DNA of 64,000 bases from Pseudomonadota bacterium (GCA_041178185.1 JBEGVS010000005.1:14103-78102), one strand, 5' to 3'. Positions 33,151 through 41,358 are shown, counted from the stretch's first letter. Made by a program: numbers and translations. Notes: a model not told the origin generated them from the sequence alone.

Positions 33151-33987
33151 TTACCGGAGGGCCTCAAGCACCTTCTTATGAACAGCAGGATTCACGGAGA
33201 GCACAAGATTGGGCAGTACCCGCGAAGGCACCGATCGAAAACTGGGGATGGCATTCCCATAAAAATCCGTAAGCATCGCCCCACTCTCTGTTGCGATAAA
33301 GGCAATCGAGCCCCCATCGATCGCCTGACAGGTGCGGTAGACCACCGCTGATGCGGTTCCCTCGAGAATATCGGTGGAATGGTAGCGACCAGGCTCTGCG
33401 GTATATGCTGTTACGAGATCCTTCGCCAGCATCGTTTTCGAAATACGCTCTGTAAGCTCTGGAGAATTAAAAAGCAACACAGGCCCGTCCCCCTTCCTCA
33501 CATCCCAGCGAAGGCCGGGCCGCCCAGAGGCGACATCCTCCCGTGTGAGAAGATATGCCCCCGATCCCTTCGTTGCGACAAAGCACCTATTTCGGCGAGG
33601 CATGTAGCAGATCGAACCGACGATCTCACGGTCGTCATGCAACGTGACGATGATCTGATAATATTCCTTACCATCGATGTACGGACGGGTTCCATCGACC
33701 GGGTCGAGAAGAATTTCCAGCGCTGAATTCCCAAGGAAGTATTTCCTGTTCAGCGATTGCTCCTGCTCCTCGGAGAAGTAACAGAGGTTTGGGAAGCGAG
33801 CTAGGAGTGCAACCTCGAGGAAGGCCTGAATTGAGAGGTCTGCATCTGAGAGAGCATGGTGAAAGATAGTGTCCCCACCCTTCTGCTCCCGGCTAGCCAC
33901 GCGCGCTTGAATCTCGGCGCTGTAGGCGCCGGCCGTGACTACATACGGGAGAAGATAACGAAGCACTTCATTCATATCTGTTTGCAT
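33151..33987 (-). CDS. inositol monophosphatase-family phosphatase (IMPase/CysQ-like)
   Basis: The ORF runs to 34041; the ATG at 33987 gives MQTDMNEVLRYLL.... Metal-binding motif ILLDPVDGTRPY and the downstream WDVRKG...GPVLL region are typical of the IMPase/FBPase fold. Confidence 0.7.
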   Translation of the reverse strand: MQTDMNEVLRYLLPYVVTAGAYSAEIQARVASREQKGGDTIFHHALSDADLSIQAFLEVALLARFPNLCYFSEEQEQSLNRKYFLGNSALEILLDPVDGTRPYIDGKEYYQIIVTLHDDREIVGSICYMPRRNRCFVATKGSGAYLLTREDVASGRPGLRWDVRKGDGPVLLFNSPELTERISKTMLAKDLVTAYTAEPGRYHSTDILEGTASAVVYRTCQAIDGGSIAFIATESGAMLTDFYGNAIPSFRSVPSRVLPNLVLSVNPAVHKKVLEALR

Positions 33988-34507
33988 GGGGAAAAAGTAG
34001 CAAAGACGGAGAGCAACGACCACCTGTTTCAGGGAGTGCACGTGGCATCTTTGTCGATCCGTCCCTCGAAAATTACCAAGGCATGCCTATCTGTACGATA
34101 GAGCGGAGAGCTTTGGTGGGCACGTTCATCTGGATTTCAGCCCCCTTTGAGGAATCTCCACCCGTCATGATTCAACATATACACACAGCGGAGAGATGCC
34201 ATGTATTCAAACAGCGGTGGAAAGAGCAATCGAGGGCTGCGGCACCCCGTGACAAGCCTGTTCGACGAGGCCAATGGTTATTCGAGCAGTCCCTCGACGC
34301 GCCGCGATCAGCTTCCTGTTTATCGACAGGAATGGGGACTGGCCTAGCGCGCGGACCTCTCCGGACCAGGGCCACGCACTTGAACGAGACCTCTATCGGT
34401 CACCCCAGGCAATGCTTAATCGGCCCAAATTGCTTTTTTATCTATTAGAACATCGAAAGATCCCCTACTATCACTCAGAGAATTTAACATTTTCAGATGA
34501 TACGGTT

Positions 34508-36094
34508 ATGATCTTTCCTCGCCTTAGGTTTGACTTTCTCCGGCAAGACATTAGCGCAGGCTTTGTAGTTTTTCTGGTAGCCCTCCCCCTGTGTCTCGGC
34601 ATCGCGATTGCATCCGAAGCTCCCCCACTATCTGGACTTATCACGGGCATCGTCGCTGGAATCCTAGTGTCCTTTCTTGCGGGTAGCGAGCTCAGTGTGA
34701 GTGGTCCCGCCGCAGGCCTCACGGTCACGGTGATCAGCGCAACGCAGTCCATCGGGTCCTTTCAGGGACTCCTCGTGGCAACCATGCTCTCAGGCGTTTT
34801 CCAACTTCTTTTTGGCGCGCTTCGTGCTGGGCACCTCGCAACGTTTTTCCCCTCTGCCGTCATTAAAGGGATGCTTGCGGGAATAGGTATCATCATCGCC
34901 TTCAAACAACTCCCACACGCGATCGGCTGGAAAAGCCCGTTCAATCCAGAAGAGGGAATGTTCTGTTTCTTTTCGCCCTTCTGCCTTAAGAGCCTATGGG
35001 AGCAAGTAAGCACCACCGGTGGACACTTTAACCTCGTCGCTATCCTCATCTCAGGGACCTCACTGATAATTCTTCTTTGGTGGCCATTGATAACCTCTCG
35101 GCTGCCAAGGGCGTTATCGATTCTTCCGGGCCCACTAGCGGTCGTTTTCGTCGGACTGATAATCAACGATATCTTGACGGCGATAGCGCCGAGCATCGCT
35201 CTGACCTCCAACGAGGGACAGTTAGTGACCATTCCCACAATAACGAGCCTCAGCGATCTCTTCTCCCACGGGCCGACCGATGTATGGTCCTGGCTCGGGT
35301 CGCCGAGGGTCTGGAGCGCAGCCCTCATCATCGCAATGATCGGAAGCTTGGAGACACTTCTTAGCCTTGAAGCGGTCGACAAACTCGACCCCCTTCGACG
35401 GGTGTCACGACCGAACCGTGAGCTGGTCGCGCAAGGGATCGGCAACATCGCTGCTGGCGGGCTCGGTGGTATCCCGATGACATCGGTTATCGTGCGCAGT
35501 AGTACAAACGTGTATTCCGGTGGACGCACCCGGCTCTCGGGCATCGTTCACGGATTTCTCCTACTGTTGAGCGTTGTCGCTATCCCCGACCTGCTTAATC
35601 AGATTCCCCTCGCCACCCTTGCAGCGATCCTTATTTTGGTTGGATACAAGCTCGCCAACGCAACCCTCATCAAAGAGGTGTGGCGGAGCGGTCTTGATCA
35701 GTTCCTTCCATTCGCGATTACAGCTTTGGGGGTAGTGGTATTTGATCTCCTCACAGGAGTATTGATCGGAACCGTCTTCGGGTTAGGAGTGGTTCTCGTC
35801 ATGAACCATCACTCAGCCTTCTCGGTGGTGCACGATGGTGAATACTACTTTTTGCGGTTCGCCAAGGATGTCACGTTTCTTCAGAAGATAGCTCTTAAGC
35901 GAGAGCTCGCGAGGCTCCCGAACGACTCCCAAATTGTGATCGACTGTGGAGGGGCGATGTTTATTGATCATGACATCCTGGAGCTTCTCAAGGACTTTAA
36001 GGAGTCCGCAGTAGACCGCCGCATCTCGGTCGAGGTTACAAACCTCCCTTCATCGAAATTCAATTTACTCTCCGCTTTTTCAAAGAGGCCATAA
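34508..36094 (+). CDS. SulP-family anion (sulfate/bicarbonate) transporter with C-terminal STAS domain
   Basis: The ORF opens at 34274; the ATG at 34508 gives MIFPRLRFDFLRQDISAGFVVFLVALPLCLGIAIASEAPPLSGLITGIVAGIL, the SulP N-terminal signature. More than 10 TM helices, then the STAS region (YYFLRFAKDVTFLQKIALKREL...IVIDCGGAMFIDHDILELL). Confidence 0.75.
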   Translation: MIFPRLRFDFLRQDISAGFVVFLVALPLCLGIAIASEAPPLSGLITGIVAGILVSFLAGSELSVSGPAAGLTVTVISATQSIGSFQGLLVATMLSGVFQLLFGALRAGHLATFFPSAVIKGMLAGIGIIIAFKQLPHAIGWKSPFNPEEGMFCFFSPFCLKSLWEQVSTTGGHFNLVAILISGTSLIILLWWPLITSRLPRALSILPGPLAVVFVGLIINDILTAIAPSIALTSNEGQLVTIPTITSLSDLFSHGPTDVWSWLGSPRVWSAALIIAMIGSLETLLSLEAVDKLDPLRRVSRPNRELVAQGIGNIAAGGLGGIPMTSVIVRSSTNVYSGGRTRLSGIVHGFLLLLSVVAIPDLLNQIPLATLAAILILVGYKLANATLIKEVWRSGLDQFLPFAITALGVVVFDLLTGVLIGTVFGLGVVLVMNHHSAFSVVHDGEYYFLRFAKDVTFLQKIALKRELARLPNDSQIVIDCGGAMFIDHDILELLKDFKESAVDRRISVEVTNLPSSKFNLLSAFSKRP

Positions 36095-36095
36095 A

Positions 36096-36725
36096 ATGGA
36101 CAAATACAAAAGGCTCCTTCTCGCTAACAAGGCTTGGGTACAAGGAAAGCTCTCCCTCTCACCAAATTTCTTCGGGGACTTAGCGAAGGAGCAGAAGCCT
36201 GAATTTCTCTGGATCGGATGTTCGGATAGCCGAGTTCCGGCGGAAGAGATCACCGGAACCGCACCCGGAGAGATCTTCACGCACCGCAACATCGCCAATC
36301 TTGTTAACCACACCGACTTCAACCTGTTGAGCGTTCTCACCTTTGCCGTCGAATACCTCAAGGTGAAGCACGTTATCGTCTGCGGTCACTATGGCTGCGG
36401 TGGTGTCAAAGCCGCACTTTCATCCCACCGTTACGGCGTTCTCGATGAGTGGCTCCGTCAGATTAAGGACTCCTACCATGCGAATAAAGATATCGTGACG
36501 CATGCGGGAGATCTCGATCATCAGGCCGATAAGCTTGTAGAGATAAACATCCACGAGCAACTCAAGAACCTGATGAAGACCAACGTCATCCAGAAAGCGT
36601 GGCACGAGGAACGGCGTCCGGTCCTCCATGGTTGGGTCTATGGAATAAGTGATGGCCTTCTGAAGAGCTTGTACAAGATAGAGCCCGGAAGTCCTATCGA
36701 CGATATCTATCGCTTTGACTTCTAG
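36096..36725 (+). CDS. beta-class carbonic anhydrase
   Basis: Starts 2 nt after the SulP stop. Zinc ligand motifs are present ([10 protein letters not shown]; [12 protein letters not shown]). Confidence 0.8.
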
Positions 36726-36800
36726 TTAAACACCAGCACTCGGTTTCCCCGCTGCGGTATCAGTCGTGCCAGGTACAGAGGGACATCCTTTCCCTCTCTC

Positions 36801-37112
36801 CTACCGCTTCTGTTGCAAGCAGTAGCCCCCTGAAGCGTAGTAGCCATTCGGGCACGTGCCGTTTTTAGGTACCGCCGGTCGAGCGTCCTTGCGAACCGCC
36901 ACGCAGTACTTCCCACTGGTAAAGTATCCGCTCGGACACTGACCCGCCCGCAGCATCGCCGGCTTCGCGTCGTCCTTGATCGGGATGCAGTACTTGCCAC
37001 TCGTGTAGAACCCCGGCGGACACGCTCCCTCTTTAGGAAGGGCACTCTGAGCACGCCCCTCTCCGACGGAGAGACCGAGGACCAGTACGAGCCATATCAA
37101 TGACCGAGCCAT
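36801..37112 (-). CDS. secreted miniprotein made of three tandem CPxG[FY][FY]xSGxYC repeats
   Basis: The ORF runs to 37139 (GTG); the ATG at 37112 gives the signal peptide MARSLIWLVLVLGLSVGEGRA. The mature part contains ACPPGFYTSGKYCIPIKDDAKPA / QCPSGYFTSGKYCVAVRKDARPA / TCPNGYYASGGYCLQQKR. Confidence 0.5.
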   Translation of the reverse strand: MARSLIWLVLVLGLSVGEGRAQSALPKEGACPPGFYTSGKYCIPIKDDAKPAMLRAGQCPSGYFTSGKYCVAVRKDARPAVPKNGTCPNGYYASGGYCLQQKR

Positions 37113-37342
37113 GTTACGTTCCTCCCGAGGTCGACCCACCTTGCATTCCTGTCGGTATTAGCTCTCTTTAGTGTGACTGTGCAAGCATAACCCACTGCGA
37201 ATCCTCCGCAGCGCTATTGCCACTCCGCTCGCTGACACTCAACGTGTAACCTCTTGTTCGAATCATAAAACAAGCTCCAAAGATTGGAAACTACGCTGAA
37301 AAACGACATACTAAGGCTTCTTTCATTTCAGAGAAGTAGATC

Positions 37343-37801
37343 ATGAGAGAACCTCAAAAACCATCGGTTACCATACAGGGCGTTACAGTGGAGCGCCAGG
37401 ACATCATCCAACACCTTCGGCTACCCGCGAGCTTCGTCGGCAGGGGAAATCAGTTAGGCGATGGAACGATCCCCTCCCTCATTCAGGAGCATCCAAGTGA
37501 ACTAAGACGGATCGGGCTCTACCAAAAAGATGTGTACGCGCCCTATTGCACCAATGTCGAGGAGGGAACGTGGGCCATCAAGACTCACAAGGTGTGGTTT
37601 GATGAGCACCGCGGAAGACCACTCGACGAGGAGACCATCACTATCCTCGAGAGTCTTCCGCTCTCACTTTCATCATCGCCGCGTCGAGAACTCCTTGAGT
37701 ACTTGCCGCCAACGTACTGCAAAAACCGAGAGGATGCGGCGTTGCTGGTTGACCTTCTCCAGAAGGCTGGCCCCACGCACCTGTGGCGCCAAAATCGGTA
37801 A
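37343..37801 (+). CDS. hypothetical protein (152 aa)
   Basis: ORF of reasonable length convergent with alaS. No motifs recognised. Confidence 0.3.
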   Translation: MREPQKPSVTIQGVTVERQDIIQHLRLPASFVGRGNQLGDGTIPSLIQEHPSELRRIGLYQKDVYAPYCTNVEEGTWAIKTHKVWFDEHRGRPLDEETITILESLPLSLSSSPRRELLEYLPPTYCKNREDAALLVDLLQKAGPTHLWRQNR

Positions 37802-37898
37802 CGTCGCGCGAGCCACCAATCAGCTCTTCGTGTAAGAGGGGCTCCCGCTGTGCAGTATGAAGAGGGCCCCGATGTTCGGCATCAGGGGGGTGAAGGCC

Positions 37899-39803
37899 CT
37901 AACCTATGAGCGCTGCCTTAACCCGTTTGATGCCAGCACCCACGTTCTCCTGCTTCTGAATCTTAAATCGCCTCGAGCCCTCCGCGATCTCGGCAGTTGA
38001 GCTCACGTGAGGACCACCGCAGAACTCCGCAGAGAACCAGTTCTTTTGGTCTCCAACGAAGTACACACTTACGATATCAGGATACTTCGCCCCGAACTCC
38101 ATCTGAGCACCAAGGGCTTCAGCCTCTTCACGCGGCATCTCCACCCTCACAACCGGCAAACTCTCACTGATCTGCTGATTAACGAGCTCCTCGACCTTTG
38201 CAATCTCGTCTGGGGTCATCTTGCGGTCGAGGTTAAAGTCCATGCGCAGACGTTCTGCCGTGATATTACTTCCCTTCTGCCGGATGTTTGAGTCAACAAC
38301 CTTCTGCATGGCAGCAAGGAGAAGGTGGTGCGCTGTGTGCAGCTTAGTTGTCTCCCTGGATTGATCCGCAAGACCACCTTTAAACTTCTGCTCAGCTCCG
38401 GCACGGGAGAGTTCACGATGGCGCTTCTCCGCTGCAGCGAACTCCTGAGAGATCGCCTTGGCCTGTTCATCGGTCACCTTGAGCTCATCCAGTGTGAGCT
38501 CGAGAGGGAATCCATATGATTCGTAAATGAAGAAGGCCTGATCACCAGAGATCAGCTTTCCAGGCTCAAGCTGCGACTGGATCTTTGAGAGCTCCTTAAG
38601 TCCCTTCGCGAGGGTCTGATTGAAAGCTACCTCTTCGTCATGAATCTTTTGAAGAACTACCTTCCGATTCTCCTCAAGATGCGGGTACGCATGCGCGAGG
38701 GTGTTGATAACCGCATCCGCAACCTCTGCGGTAAACTCCCGCTCAAGGCCAAGCTTCTTTCCGAAACGCACAAGGCGTCGAATGAAGCGCCGCAGGATAT
38801 ACCCCTGGTCCTTGTTCGATGGAGAGACCCCATCCGCTAAGATAAAAGTTGCGGCTCGGCCGTGATCCGCAATGACACGGAATGCAGCGGTGTCCTCGTT
38901 TTCCCTTCCATCTGTCTTGTAGGATCGTCCCGATAGAGCCGCGACTCGGTCGATGATAGGACGATAGATGTCGCTCTCGAAGATCTCCGTCTTCCCTTGA
39001 ACGATCATGCAAACACGCTCAAATCCTCCGCCAAAATCGATATTCTTCTGGGCCAGGGGCTCCCACTTCATCTCGGCGTTGAGCTTGTACTCCATGAATA
39101 CGTTATTGCCGATCTCAACGAACCTACCCGAATCATCGTTAATATCGTACCTATCCTGTATGCGCTCAGGCACGCCCAGGTCATAGAACATCTCAGAGGT
39201 GGGGCCCCCAAGTTCTCCCGGCGCATCTGCGCGCTGCCACCAGTTCTTCTTCTTATTGTACGGGAAGATGTGGTACTTCCACCCTTTGGACTGCTCCAAA
39301 GTTGGGGGCACGTTGTACACGTCCTCGCTGAACTCAGCCTCAACCCCATACTGACGGAAGACCTTTTTCCAGGTCTCGATTGCGAGATCGTCGCGAGGCG
39401 CGGTTTCGTCGCCAGCAAACACCGACACGTAGAGACGCTCTGGGTCCATGCCATATACCTTGACCCACAGCTCCATAATCCACGGAATCTGTTGTTCCTT
39501 CGAAAAGTCACCGAGAGACCAGTCGCCGATCATCTCGAACATGAGGGTGTGCCGATTATCACCCACCTCCAGCATGTCCTCGTAATTGGTCCGAAGGCAT
39601 CGCTGAATATTACAAAGGCGCTTTCCAAGCGGGTGCGGTTGCCCCCCAAGGTACGGAACGAGCGGGAACATCCCCGAATTAACGAAGAGGAGCGTTGAAT
39701 CCACATTGGGGACCAGTGACATGTTGGGGACTACGCCACACTTGCGGGGAGCCTGAGTCCAAAACTCAATAAACTTTTCTCGTACTTCTCGTGATGTCAG
39801 CAT
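37899..39803 (-). CDS. alaS: alanyl-tRNA synthetase, short form (catalytic + tRNA-recognition + editing domains; no C-terminal C-Ala domain)
   Basis: ATG at 39803 with an AAGGAAG RBS (the ORF extends to 39863). Class-II AlaRS motifs: FVNSGMFPLVPY, HHTLMFEMIGDWSLGDFSK, YDLGVPE...FVEIGNNVFMEY, FGGGFERV. Editing-domain HxxxH (HTAHHLLLAAM) and C-terminal CGGPHVSSTAEIAEGSRRFKI. ~635 aa versus ~870 aa for canonical bacterial AlaRS. Confidence 0.8.
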   Translation of the reverse strand: MLTSREVREKFIEFWTQAPRKCGVVPNMSLVPNVDSTLLFVNSGMFPLVPYLGGQPHPLGKRLCNIQRCLRTNYEDMLEVGDNRHTLMFEMIGDWSLGDFSKEQQIPWIMELWVKVYGMDPERLYVSVFAGDETAPRDDLAIETWKKVFRQYGVEAEFSEDVYNVPPTLEQSKGWKYHIFPYNKKKNWWQRADAPGELGGPTSEMFYDLGVPERIQDRYDINDDSGRFVEIGNNVFMEYKLNAEMKWEPLAQKNIDFGGGFERVCMIVQGKTEIFESDIYRPIIDRVAALSGRSYKTDGRENEDTAAFRVIADHGRAATFILADGVSPSNKDQGYILRRFIRRLVRFGKKLGLEREFTAEVADAVINTLAHAYPHLEENRKVVLQKIHDEEVAFNQTLAKGLKELSKIQSQLEPGKLISGDQAFFIYESYGFPLELTLDELKVTDEQAKAISQEFAAAEKRHRELSRAGAEQKFKGGLADQSRETTKLHTAHHLLLAAMQKVVDSNIRQKGSNITAERLRMDFNLDRKMTPDEIAKVEELVNQQISESLPVVRVEMPREEAEALGAQMEFGAKYPDIVSVYFVGDQKNWFSAEFCGGPHVSSTAEIAEGSRRFKIQKQENVGAGIKRVKAALIG

Positions 39804-40029
39804 AGTCTTCCTTGGGTGGCGGAGGGCCAGTGCGGCCACATGACTGGTATATCTCACCGCCATTTCATACGTGCGTACGGCAGTGTAATCGTGACCGGAG
39901 GAGCTGGCAAGTCGGGCTTACAGGGGGAAAATCCCTGCTAAACGGGGGCATACGGGAGATCTTTACGAAGCGCTTGGATGCGAGCATGGTCGATTGCCCG
40001 GTTCAGGCCATCTCCCGCGGAATCATCAA

Positions 40030-41358
40030 CTACCGACCGGAAACCACGTCGAGCTCGGGAACGACCTCAACATCGGTCGCCAACACGTATCCCCCTCGCC
40101 CCTTCTTCGAGCGGAGTCTAAGCCACCGACCGACCCGCCCTTCAACGAGGACTCGGTCTCCCGGCTCAAGCTGGCCGATCACCCTTCCCCCATAGCTCGG
40201 AGCTGACACCACTGAGGCGCGATTCAAAACACGGTACGTTCTCTGGTCATCACCTCCCCGTGATGAGGAACCTGGAAGCACAGCCTGAGGGGCTCCCCCC
40301 TGAAGCTCCTCACGACGACTCGCTGAGGGTCGGATACGACCACGTTCAACCCGCTCACGGAACTCAGGCCCCTCGATCGGCCCCCGTGTGTTCACCTCCT
40401 CTTTAGGACCAGGAGGTGAAGATTCAGTTTTGGCGAGTTGAGACTCGGGAGATGACTGAGGCATCGGCCCTTTAACCGATTGAGCGGCGCGAGCAGTGGC
40501 CGGTTCCGTATTTGTCCCCTCACCGATGGAATAGAAGAGCGCTCCGAGTCGCCCACTTGGATCTCGTCGACCCGGAAGCTCTGTCGCTTGGTTAATATCG
40601 AGTGGCGTCTGCTCAAAGCTCTCTGATGCGATATCCAATGCAGGGGTTCGAATGTGAGGAAACATCCGGTCGATCGTAATCAACGCGACGACCGTAATCA
40701 GACACACCGTCGTCCACACAAGACGTTTCTGTCCACTGCGCGGCAAGCCAACTGAAGGATGTTGAGCGGATGTTGGTGCGGTCGCCTCCGCAGAGACGCT
40801 TTGCAGGGACCGGAAAGAGCTGGTGCTACTGCGCTCCCGACTACCTCGAGCTTCCTGTATTCCAAGCCGCGCGAGCGAACCCCGCACGTCGTTGACATGG
40901 GCGGTATCGCCCACCTCTTGGAGACGCTGAAGCACCAAGAGACCGGTCTCTTTCAGCAGAGGGCTCAACGAGTCGGTTACGCTCTCAGGCGCGAGCTTTT
41001 TGCATACGGCATCAAACGGTGCAGAAAGAAAGGAGACAGGCATCGAGAAAGCGCCGAGATGTCCCCGAATCCACCACAACTTCACCCCAAGATCATCTCC
41101 GTGCGCGAGACGGCCCTCAGCGAGACGAACGATCTCAGTCCACTTGGACTCGGCGGCAAGCAACTCAAATTCATTTCTTGCTGGTGGTTGCTGGGTTGTG
41201 GAGGCATCGCCGATCGTCCATGACGAAGAGCGCGAAGACCCGTGCGAGAGCTCAAGGTCGATCGAGATCTCCTTCTCTTGCGGGGCCTCCGCTCGAGCCA
41301 GGAGCGCCTCTAACCCGAGGTCGATCCGCTCCCTATTTTTAGCTCCCTTGGTATCCAT
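40030..41358 (-). CDS. bitopic membrane protein with disordered Ser/Pro-rich periplasmic region and C-terminal bacterial SH3 (SH3b) domain
   Basis: ATG at 41358. Single TM helix LVWTTVCLITVVALITI. C-terminal YRVLNRASVVSAPSYGGRVIGQLEPGDRVLVEGRVGRWLRLRSKKGRGGYVLATDV matches the SH3b fold pattern. Confidence 0.5.
   Translation of the reverse strand: MDTKGAKNRERIDLGLEALLARAEAPQEKEISIDLELSHGSSRSSSWTIGDASTTQQPPARNEFELLAAESKWTEIVRLAEGRLAHGDDLGVKLWWIRGHLGAFSMPVSFLSAPFDAVCKKLAPESVTDSLSPLLKETGLLVLQRLQEVGDTAHVNDVRGSLARLGIQEARGSRERSSTSSFRSLQSVSAEATAPTSAQHPSVGLPRSGQKRLVWTTVCLITVVALITIDRMFPHIRTPALDIASESFEQTPLDINQATELPGRRDPSGRLGALFYSIGEGTNTEPATARAAQSVKGPMPQSSPESQLAKTESSPPGPKEEVNTRGPIEGPEFRERVERGRIRPSASRREELQGGAPQAVLPGSSSRGGDDQRTYRVLNRASVVSAPSYGGRVIGQLEPGDRVLVEGRVGRWLRLRSKKGRGGYVLATDVEVVPELDVVSGR

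Follow-up and report, generated by a model that had tools for sequence, protein, structure and literature searches.

A gene on the minus strand at 36801–37112 of the analysed DNA (a stretch of 64,000 nucleotides from a Pseudomonadota bacterium, hereafter the window) encodes an exported miniprotein whose mature part is composed of three related units, each with a hairpin flanked by two cysteines. The hairpin itself is a known motif, while the three-unit domain, the family to which the protein belongs, and the concerted change of one hairpin position in all three units (+5, the fifth residue after the first Cys of a unit) are undescribed. Our confidence in this descriptive part of the work, that is, in the gene, its export signal, the repeats, the family, the fold prediction, and the concerted position, is very high; the functional readings discussed at the end are graded separately.

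The Gene and Its Export Signal

The coding sequence of the precursor comprises 103 codons starting from the ATG at 37112 and a stop codon at 36801–36803. In the list of open reading frames, this minus-strand ORF is extended to an in-frame GTG at 37139, but the ATG is taken as the start and the GTG is considered unlikely because a Shine–Dalgarno element, GGGAGGAA (37119–37126, minus strand, as read from the sequence), is located 6 nt 5′ of the ATG. Judged by its sequence, with a strong Shine–Dalgarno element, a conserved mature region, and a variable signal peptide, this is a real, translated gene.

Residues 1–21 of the precursor (MARSLIWLVLVLGLSVGEGRA, 37050–37112, minus strand) bear a hydrophobic core followed by a small-x-small site. 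Together with the QS that comes next, this N-terminus looks like a Sec-type leader, which by the AxA-type rule would be cleaved after GRA, before Gln22. The mature protein is then 82 aa long with a pI of 9.4, and it contains 6 Cys, 7 Tyr, 2 Phe, 12 Lys and Arg, 10 Gly, and 9 Pro, in agreement with the initial annotation, which had proposed a signal peptide and a mature protein of about 80 residues; the cleavage site remains a predicted one.

The flanking signals are less distinct. A weak sigma-70-like promoter match, TTTCCA-17-TATGAT (37262–37290, minus strand), lies about 150 nt upstream of the ATG and is regarded as tentative, the consensus scan having returned 1 site versus 0.5 expected in shuffled sequences. 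The sequence upstream of the gene shows no conservation among related loci, and an Rfam scan of the leader for regulatory RNA gave no match. On the 3′ side, the convergent β-carbonic anhydrase gene shares with the miniprotein gene an intergenic spacer (36726–36800, minus strand) for which RNA folding gives two stem-loops (−29.8 kcal/mol, z = −3.3 versus shuffles), the first of which begins at the stop codon. The stem-loops may represent a terminator, perhaps a bidirectional one, or a transcript stabiliser, but a U-tract is absent and the terminator scan left this spacer unflagged.

Gene Neighbourhood

The region 33151–41358 is a housekeeping neighbourhood. It comprises an inositol monophosphatase-family gene (33151–34041, minus strand), a SulP/STAS transporter gene (34274–36094, plus strand) directly followed by the β-carbonic anhydrase gene (36096–36725, plus strand), and, on the other side of the miniprotein gene, a 152-aa ORF with no Pfam match (37343–37801, plus strand), the alanyl-tRNA synthetase gene alaS (37899–39863, minus strand), and a gene for an SH3_3-domain protein (40030–41358, minus strand). 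Thus, the miniprotein gene is located downstream of alaS and is convergent with the β-carbonic anhydrase/SulP pair. The same arrangement is found in five Bdellovibrionota loci besides, and the SulP–carbonic anhydrase pairing is conserved among related loci. The syntenic loci of Bdellovibrionota have no counterpart of the 152-aa ORF, which in the window separates alaS from the miniprotein gene, and in these loci only 62–368 bp lie between the miniprotein gene and the preceding alaS; the ORF may be a lineage-specific insertion or a non-gene.

An all-against-all comparison of the ORFs within 5 kb in 30 loci, supplemented by eight annotated contigs, revealed no neighbour conserved beyond close relatives or across phyla. 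The neighbours found across phyla include DUF945, HNH, HipA/HTH, DNA ligase, a Cas9 locus, and others, and in these loci no immunity, export, modification, or processing genes were seen near the miniprotein gene. One relative with five units (P0171, 184 aa) adjoins a type II CRISPR-Cas9/Cas1 locus and a Usp gene, with IS1595 transposase genes on its flanks; at a distance of 4 kb there is another gene for 184 aa, which may be its duplicate (L032, 5001–5555 and 9416–9970).

Three Units with a Period of 28 Residues

The mature protein consists almost entirely of the repeats, all encoded on the minus strand. Unit 1 occupies residues 23–50 (36963–37046; SALPKEGACPPGFYTSGKYCIPIKDDAK) with its core CPPGFYTSGKYC at 36987–37022, unit 2 occupies residues 51–78 (36879–36962; PAMLRAGQCPSGYFTSGKYCVAVRKDAR) with the core CPSGYFTSGKYC at 36903–36938, and unit 3, together with a basic tail, occupies residues 79–103 (36804–36878; PAVPKNGTCPNGYYASGGYCLQQKR) with the core CPNGYYASGGYC at 36819–36854. 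With their flanks, the cores read SALPKEGA-CPPGFYTSGKYC-IPIKDDAK, PAMLRAGQ-CPSGYFTSGKYC-VAVRKDAR, and PAVPKNGT-CPNGYYASGGYC-LQQKR, the last five residues (LQQKR) forming the tail. The number of three tandem units given in the initial annotation holds, while the period of about 26 residues does not: the cores start at codons 37022, 36938, and 36854, i.e., exactly 28 aa apart. Each unit indeed has two cysteines 11 residues apart (at i and i+11), and the three CPxG[FY][FY]xSGxYC cores described before are found nowhere else in the window. The six-frame translation of the window (127,996 residues) contains even the more relaxed pattern C..G[FYW]...G..C only 3 times, always in the miniprotein, with 0.026 occurrences expected from composition.

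At the DNA level, the units are only 53–59% identical, about half of the identical residues are specified by different codons, and Tandem Repeats Finder reported no repeat in the window DNA. The low identity and the absence of a Tandem Repeats Finder match indicate that the triplication is old and that the likeness of the units is maintained at the protein level. A tandem DNA repeat or a recent duplication, considered as another source of the pattern, is ruled out by the same null result, the DNA divergence, and the differing codons.

A Family of Hypothetical Proteins in Diderm Bacteria

A word-indexed search returned 16 close homologues with 53–79% identity, all of which are three-unit proteins with invariant cysteines and variable signal peptides. 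A HMMER scan of 1.84 billion cluster representatives (clusters at 50% identity) extended the family to 1188 clusters at E ≤ 1e-3 and 455 at E ≤ 1e-10, most of them 95–125 aa long, while a profile search of a 90%-identity database gave 1025 clusters, of which every named one is a “hypothetical protein”. Members are found mostly in Proteobacteria, spanning the Alpha-, Beta-, and Gammaproteobacteria, and in Bdellovibrionota, with a few phage and plasmid copies. Among species-representative genomes, the closest relatives (55–74%) belong to Bdellovibrionota and “Deltaproteobacteria” MAGs, and more distant ones (33–55%) to Beijerinckiaceae, Burkholderiaceae, Alcaligenaceae, Polynucleobacter, Chromatiaceae, Methylococcales, Desulfocapsaceae, Alcanivorax, and Myxococcales. 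Judging from the closest relatives, the window most probably derives from a freshwater member of the Bdellovibrionota. Among the cultured carriers are Microvirga terrae, Bosea, Sulfurospirillum diekertiae, Alteromonas mediterranea, and Ca. Thiodictyon, where the copies reside on plasmids or chromids and are unannotated or named “hypothetical”.

Viral copies are of both lengths. The Synechococcus phage S-CBS4 protein gp076 (L037, 2986–3177) is a 63-aa two-unit relative, MISLLILAQLAQPLPRTGSCPIGYYISSSYCVPTQTARNAIQREGSTCPMGYYISGTYCVRNR, whose gene sits among recombination and nucleotide-metabolism genes, and the two IMG/VR contigs L042 and L043 both bear three-unit relatives.

Scans of the window protein and ten relatives against Pfam, NCBIfam, and PHROGs gave no family model, only partial matches to eukaryotic Cys modules, and a literature search by motif strings returned only papers on eukaryotic EGF, thionin, and venom proteins and none on a bacterial family. 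With a single repeat as a query, the check proposed in the initial annotation, Pfam cEGF scores 15–16 bits. As far as sampled, this family is undescribed and confined to diderm bacteria and their phages and plasmids.

Two points raised along with the initial annotation concerned the homologues. All six cysteines are invariant in 17 close and 80–142 distant homologues, and the repeat number is variable: among 166 proteins, 114 have three units and 33 have two, with a few bearing four (P0167), five (P0171), two plus three (P0021), or six units arranged as 2 × 3 (P0017 and P0020). In the latter two proteins, the linker types alternate as they do in three-unit proteins, suggesting that whole three-unit modules have been duplicated and that the triplet is the structural unit. 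Larger relatives are for the most part explained by such duplications of entire modules (2 × 3 or 2 + 3). When eight concatenated consensus repeats were used as a query, no long arrays were retrieved, and mostly three-repeat proteins were returned. “Long” relatives are for the most part over-called ORFs bearing the same C-terminal module; the only genuine domain fusions are one TPR protein and one ABC-permease protein, the latter with an N-terminal permease domain and counted as support for export.

The per-unit signature of the family is x-[AP]-[ILV]-x-[KR]-x-G-x-C-P-x-G-[YFW]-x-x-S-G-x-Y-C-[VL]. Among the 948 units compared, neither the two cysteines nor the Gly at +3 ever vary, conservation reaches 91–99% for Pro at +1, Ser at +7, Gly at +8, and Tyr at +10, and Lys or Arg at −4 is present in 811 units (about 86%). 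The units are spaced by 27–28 residues and can be told apart by what follows the second Cys: an “xP” specific to unit 1 (about 95% of the family), a “[VL]A” specific to unit 2 (about 88%), and, after the last Cys of unit 3, a tail of 3–5 residues in the majority of members. Ahead of the first Cys, 217 of 224 members have a hydrophobic 10-mer, and the mature proteins are consistently basic (median pI 8.9, with 95% of members above 8). The window protein has every feature of the family: the leader, the 28-aa spacing, IP after unit 1, VA after unit 2, and the five-residue tail.

A β-proteobacterial subgroup (L021–L029, Alcaligenaceae/Burkholderiaceae) possesses an extra pair of cysteines, one in an N-terminal “ACRNP” and the other in the linker 2 sequence “NSCHAFF”. 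This pattern suggests that a fourth disulfide connects the N-terminus with linker 2, which would be consistent with the N-terminal segment lying near linker 2 in a compact fold. The same subgroup has G-G-G in place of the [KR]-x-G leader and Ser instead of Tyr before the second Cys, and in its loci a conserved gene for a 551-aa secreted protein comes next on the same strand.

Predicted Structure

AlphaFold2, run with an alignment of 128 sequences, predicted the mature window protein with a mean pLDDT of 84.5 and a pTM of 0.65; every unit is modelled as a short strand followed by a two-stranded β-hairpin. For a relative with 44% identity (P0211), the same strand pattern was obtained with a pLDDT of 91–95 for the mature domain and a pTM of 0.66, and its N-terminal leader of about 30 residues was predicted to be disordered. 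The pTM of about 0.65 argues for a fixed packing of the units rather than beads on a string. A Foldseek search gave no significant structural match, the list being dominated by TNFR-family and megalin chains. Structure prediction, which had been named as a check, thus yields confident strand-hairpin units without a match to a known fold, and the models point to one rigid three-unit domain whose fold would have no solved counterpart. Within each unit, the two cysteines probably form their own disulfide, given the predicted hairpin and the analogy with SRP, GBP, and EGF hairpins considered below.

Likeness to Known Hairpin Modules

A sequence profile search of the PDB produced a single significant match, the stress-response peptide-1 of Manduca sexta (SRP1, 6EE9; RVGTCPSGYVRRGTFC / RVGTCPSGYVRRGTFCFPDD), with an E-value of 3e-4 for the full profile and 0.009 for a single-repeat profile; SRP2, insulin-like receptor, and the furin repeats of R-spondin-2 were non-significant. 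The insect GBP/ENF/SRP peptides and the bacterial units are alike in being short β-hairpins, here a predicted one, closed by a single disulfide, C-x2-G-[aromatic]-x3-G-x2-C, and SRP1 shares with the bacterial units the [KR]-x-G-x-C-P-S-G-Y start and the C-x10-C spacing. The published GBP/ENF consensus is C-x2-G-x(4,6)-G-x(1,2)-C-[KR], and NMR structures of these peptides resemble the C-terminal sub-domain of EGF (PMC6439351). All three units of the window protein read C-x2-G-x4-G-x2-C and hence contain the GBP core, but the [KR] after the second Cys is replaced by I, V, and L in the window protein and mostly by V, L, I, or T in the family. Moreover, the insect peptides are free peptides of 19–25 aa derived from the C-terminus of a precursor, whereas the bacterial units are fused in threes into a predicted rigid domain, and this prediction argues against the release of free peptides. 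The match to 6EE9, which extends over about 20 residues with 18–23 bits, is too short to imply common descent.

EGF modules (cEGF, EGF_3) and the CC, Sushi, and CPW_WPC domains likewise share with the units a C-x-x-G-[YF]-x-x-x-G-x-x-C hairpin. In EGF modules, this hairpin lies between the last two cysteines, and it is exactly this stretch that the Pfam alignments cover. The whole window protein scores 22.1 bits with cEGF (PF12662), below the cut-off of 26.6. The CC domain (PF04942) scores 21.1 bits versus a cut-off of 20.6, the match involving only profile positions 10–31 of 34 and only unit 3; the same partial match is seen in some relatives, as are partial matches to Sushi, EGF_3, and CPW_WPC. 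In the literature, the pentapeptides CPSGY and CPPGY appear in EGF modules of Notch, fibrillin, and thrombospondin. An EGF module, however, has six cysteines forming three disulfides, whereas the window protein has two per 28-aa unit and six in total. The nematode CC domain has four conserved cysteines including a CC dipeptide, and no CC dipeptide occurs in the 103 residues of the window protein. On the sequence evidence, the EGF/GBP likeness is that of a shared minimal disulfide-stapled hairpin and not of family membership.

Furin-like and TNFR repeats (insulin receptor, Fu repeats of R-spondin) are elongated arrays of disulfide-pinned hairpins with “SCPSGYY”-like strings. Their matches were all non-significant (E 1.4–10, TM 0.2), and these repeats differ from the bacterial units in having 2–4 disulfides per module and in lacking the [AP]-[ILV]-x-[KR]-x-G leader strand. 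MXAN_6577-like (NF041328), the one NCBIfam model to give a signal at all, likewise describes a bacterial, secreted, Cys-rich protein; membership in it is rejected by a score of 14.2 bits versus a cut-off of 100. A 672-aa protein (P0074), Firmicutes-like and membrane-anchored, bears 11 units C-x-S-G-Y-T-L-S-G-T-K-C with Thr-rich linkers and exceeds the Pfam thresholds of cEGF, Sushi, and EGF_3; the protein seems to be a distinct and longer array of the same hairpin motif.

Concerted Variation within the Hairpins

Against the conserved background of the hairpin, positions +5, +6, and +9 are variable (entropy 2.2–2.7 bits), with +5 reaching 2.7 bits and accommodating Y, S, H, F, T, R, N, I, V, and W across the family. 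Within a single protein, however, the repeats tend to agree: the same residue is found in all three repeats at +5 in 55% of proteins and at +6 in 63%, versus 6–7% in shuffled data. In pairs at least 72% identical at the other unit positions, +5 differs in none of the units in 1475 cases and in all three in 4132, whereas it differs in one unit in 692 and in two units in 670; because the pairs share ancestry and are not independent, these counts overstate the number of +5 change events. Independent change at +5 would give mostly one- or two-unit differences, whereas the observed differences are clearly bimodal, comprising either none or all three of the units.

The codons used at these positions bear on how the matching is maintained. 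Arg at +5 in all three units of one gene is specified by AGA, CGG, and CGT, Ser at +5 in another gene by AGC, TCA, and AGT, and TCN and AGY codons are mixed within single genes for Ser at +6. Gene conversion as the source of matched repeats is ruled out, for the few informative genes, by these codons of different families and by the diverged DNA of the units. The same-codon fraction is 0.50 within genes versus 0.39 between genes, a baseline that is confounded by codon usage. The mixed codon families and the divergence of the unit DNA imply that selection at the protein level keeps the hairpins matched, as would be expected if the hairpins were equivalent sites, or together made up a single composite site, with the matched residue setting the specificity. 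The hairpins of the window protein are less uniform than those of many relatives (FYT / YFT / YYA).

Possible Functions

The reading that we favour, although it stops short of being probable, is that of a stand-alone multivalent binding module acting in the periplasm or at the cell surface, with three matched sites for an anionic repetitive ligand. According to this proposal, the Sec-exported basic protein of 82 aa would fold as one domain of three related but non-equivalent units, each formed by a short strand, [AP]-[ILV]-x-[KR]-x-G-x, and a 12-residue hairpin, C-P-x-G-[YFW]-x-x-S-G-x-Y-C, closed by one disulfide. The protein would act alone. Its three hairpins would present matched surfaces rich in Tyr, Ser, Gly, and Asn together with the conserved Lys/Arg, the residue at +5 would set the specificity, and selection would hold it equal in the three hairpins. 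That the ligand is anionic and either repetitive or symmetric is suggested by the basic pI and the conserved Lys/Arg, by the hairpins rich in Tyr, Ser, Gly, and Asn, and by the modular repeat number; it would most likely be a component of the envelope, for example LPS, EPS, or a glycan of the cell wall. The periplasm or the cell surface is the presumed location, and the signal peptide is compatible with either of them or with release. What counts against this reading is that the conserved Tyr, Ser, and Gly could all be structural, that no neighbouring gene conserved across phyla points to a pathway, and that the hairpins of the window protein itself match less closely than those of many relatives.

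A more far-reaching version of this proposal, which we consider rather unlikely, sees in the protein a minimal, tunable binder scaffold of natural origin. Its fold would be one not seen before, and its specificity would be reset by changing +5 in the three hairpins simultaneously. The three stapled hairpins would then form one pseudo-symmetric recognition surface or site, and each lineage would recognise a surface polymer or a trimeric envelope protein of its own, of a competitor, or of a phage.

Several other functions are conceivable for a protein of this kind. A hypervariable residue in a rigid loop is typical of canonical protease inhibitor families, and the miniprotein, which is small, basic, disulfide-rich, and exported from a stand-alone gene that does not need partner genes, has just a single hypervariable residue in a rigid conserved loop; it might inhibit exported or foreign enzymes, for instance a protease or a hydrolase of the cell wall, in a multi-headed manner, the hairpins being the reactive loops and +5 a P1-like specificity residue by analogy with Bowman–Birk or Kazal inhibitors. 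We consider this improbable: sequence and fold searches of Pfam and PDB gave no inhibitor-family match, the heads are kept identical here while those of known multi-headed inhibitors usually differ, and +5 is placed on a predicted strand five residues past the Cys, whereas in Bowman–Birk loops the variable residue is found two residues after the Cys. The resemblance to insect peptides raises the idea of a polyprotein precursor that would be cut at the conserved Lys/Arg into single-disulfide signal or effector peptides, like GBP/ENF/SRP. Such processing would account for the profile matches to Manduca SRP1 (6EE9), for the fit of every unit to the published GBP motif C-x2-G-x(4,6)-G-x(1,2)-C (PMC6439351), and for the Lys or Arg ahead of each hairpin, but it is the least probable of the functions considered, since AlphaFold shows one rigid domain with the linkers as strands (pTM about 0.65, pLDDT up to 95), the linkers are conserved and position-specific, the extra Cys pair of β-proteobacterial members appears to tie the N-terminal segment to linker 2, the [KR] of the GBP motif after the second Cys is absent, and no processing protease or exporter is linked to the gene.

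Antimicrobial and adhesive roles had been put forward, besides a lectin-like one, in the initial annotation, whose interpretation is partly borne out. A secreted antimicrobial or bacteriocin-like peptide, or a predation effector directed against the envelopes of other cells, would suit a small, cationic, Cys-stabilised protein with a secretion signal; weak defensin-like and thionin-like motif matches were found, none of them significant, Bdellovibrionota, the probable host phylum, includes predators, and the hypervariable position could reflect an arms race. Such a role is nevertheless very unlikely, given that in 30+ loci no adjacent gene for immunity, modification, or dedicated export is conserved, the leader is an ordinary Sec signal peptide, the mature protein has no amphipathic or hydrophobic segment, and the gene keeps its position in Bdellovibrionota while the family is broadly distributed in non-predatory Proteobacteria. 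There is an equally slight chance that the protein is a structural or adhesive matrix component, a Tyr/Lys/Gly/Ser-rich non-specific glue for parts of the envelope or biofilm, whose composition would be comparable to that of mussel foot proteins built from EGF-like repeats. The 7 Tyr, 2 Phe, 12 Lys and Arg, and 10 Gly in 82 residues, the basic pI conserved family-wide, and the independence from partner genes accord with such a glue, which, however, would require neither a matched +5 nor strict spacing and invariant structural residues; in addition, there is no sign that the protein leaves the periplasm, and the eight-repeat query revealed no long repeat arrays.

Significance

Whichever function the miniprotein serves, a hairpin familiar from animals (EGF/GBP) defines a bacterial family of more than 1000 clusters distributed over several phyla. 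The protein-level matching of a hypervariable residue is an unusual evolutionary signature, and it marks the place where function should be sought. As the domain of about 80 residues is predicted with high confidence, it should be an easy target for structural work and binding screens, and the family could supply a very small, disulfide-stable binder scaffold. If the binder-scaffold reading is true, these proteins would be bacterial recognition modules of a new class and would offer a compact template on which to engineer binders. With its ligand identified, an envelope protein that is common in Proteobacteria and Bdellovibrionota of fresh water and soil, and so far named “hypothetical”, would gain a role.
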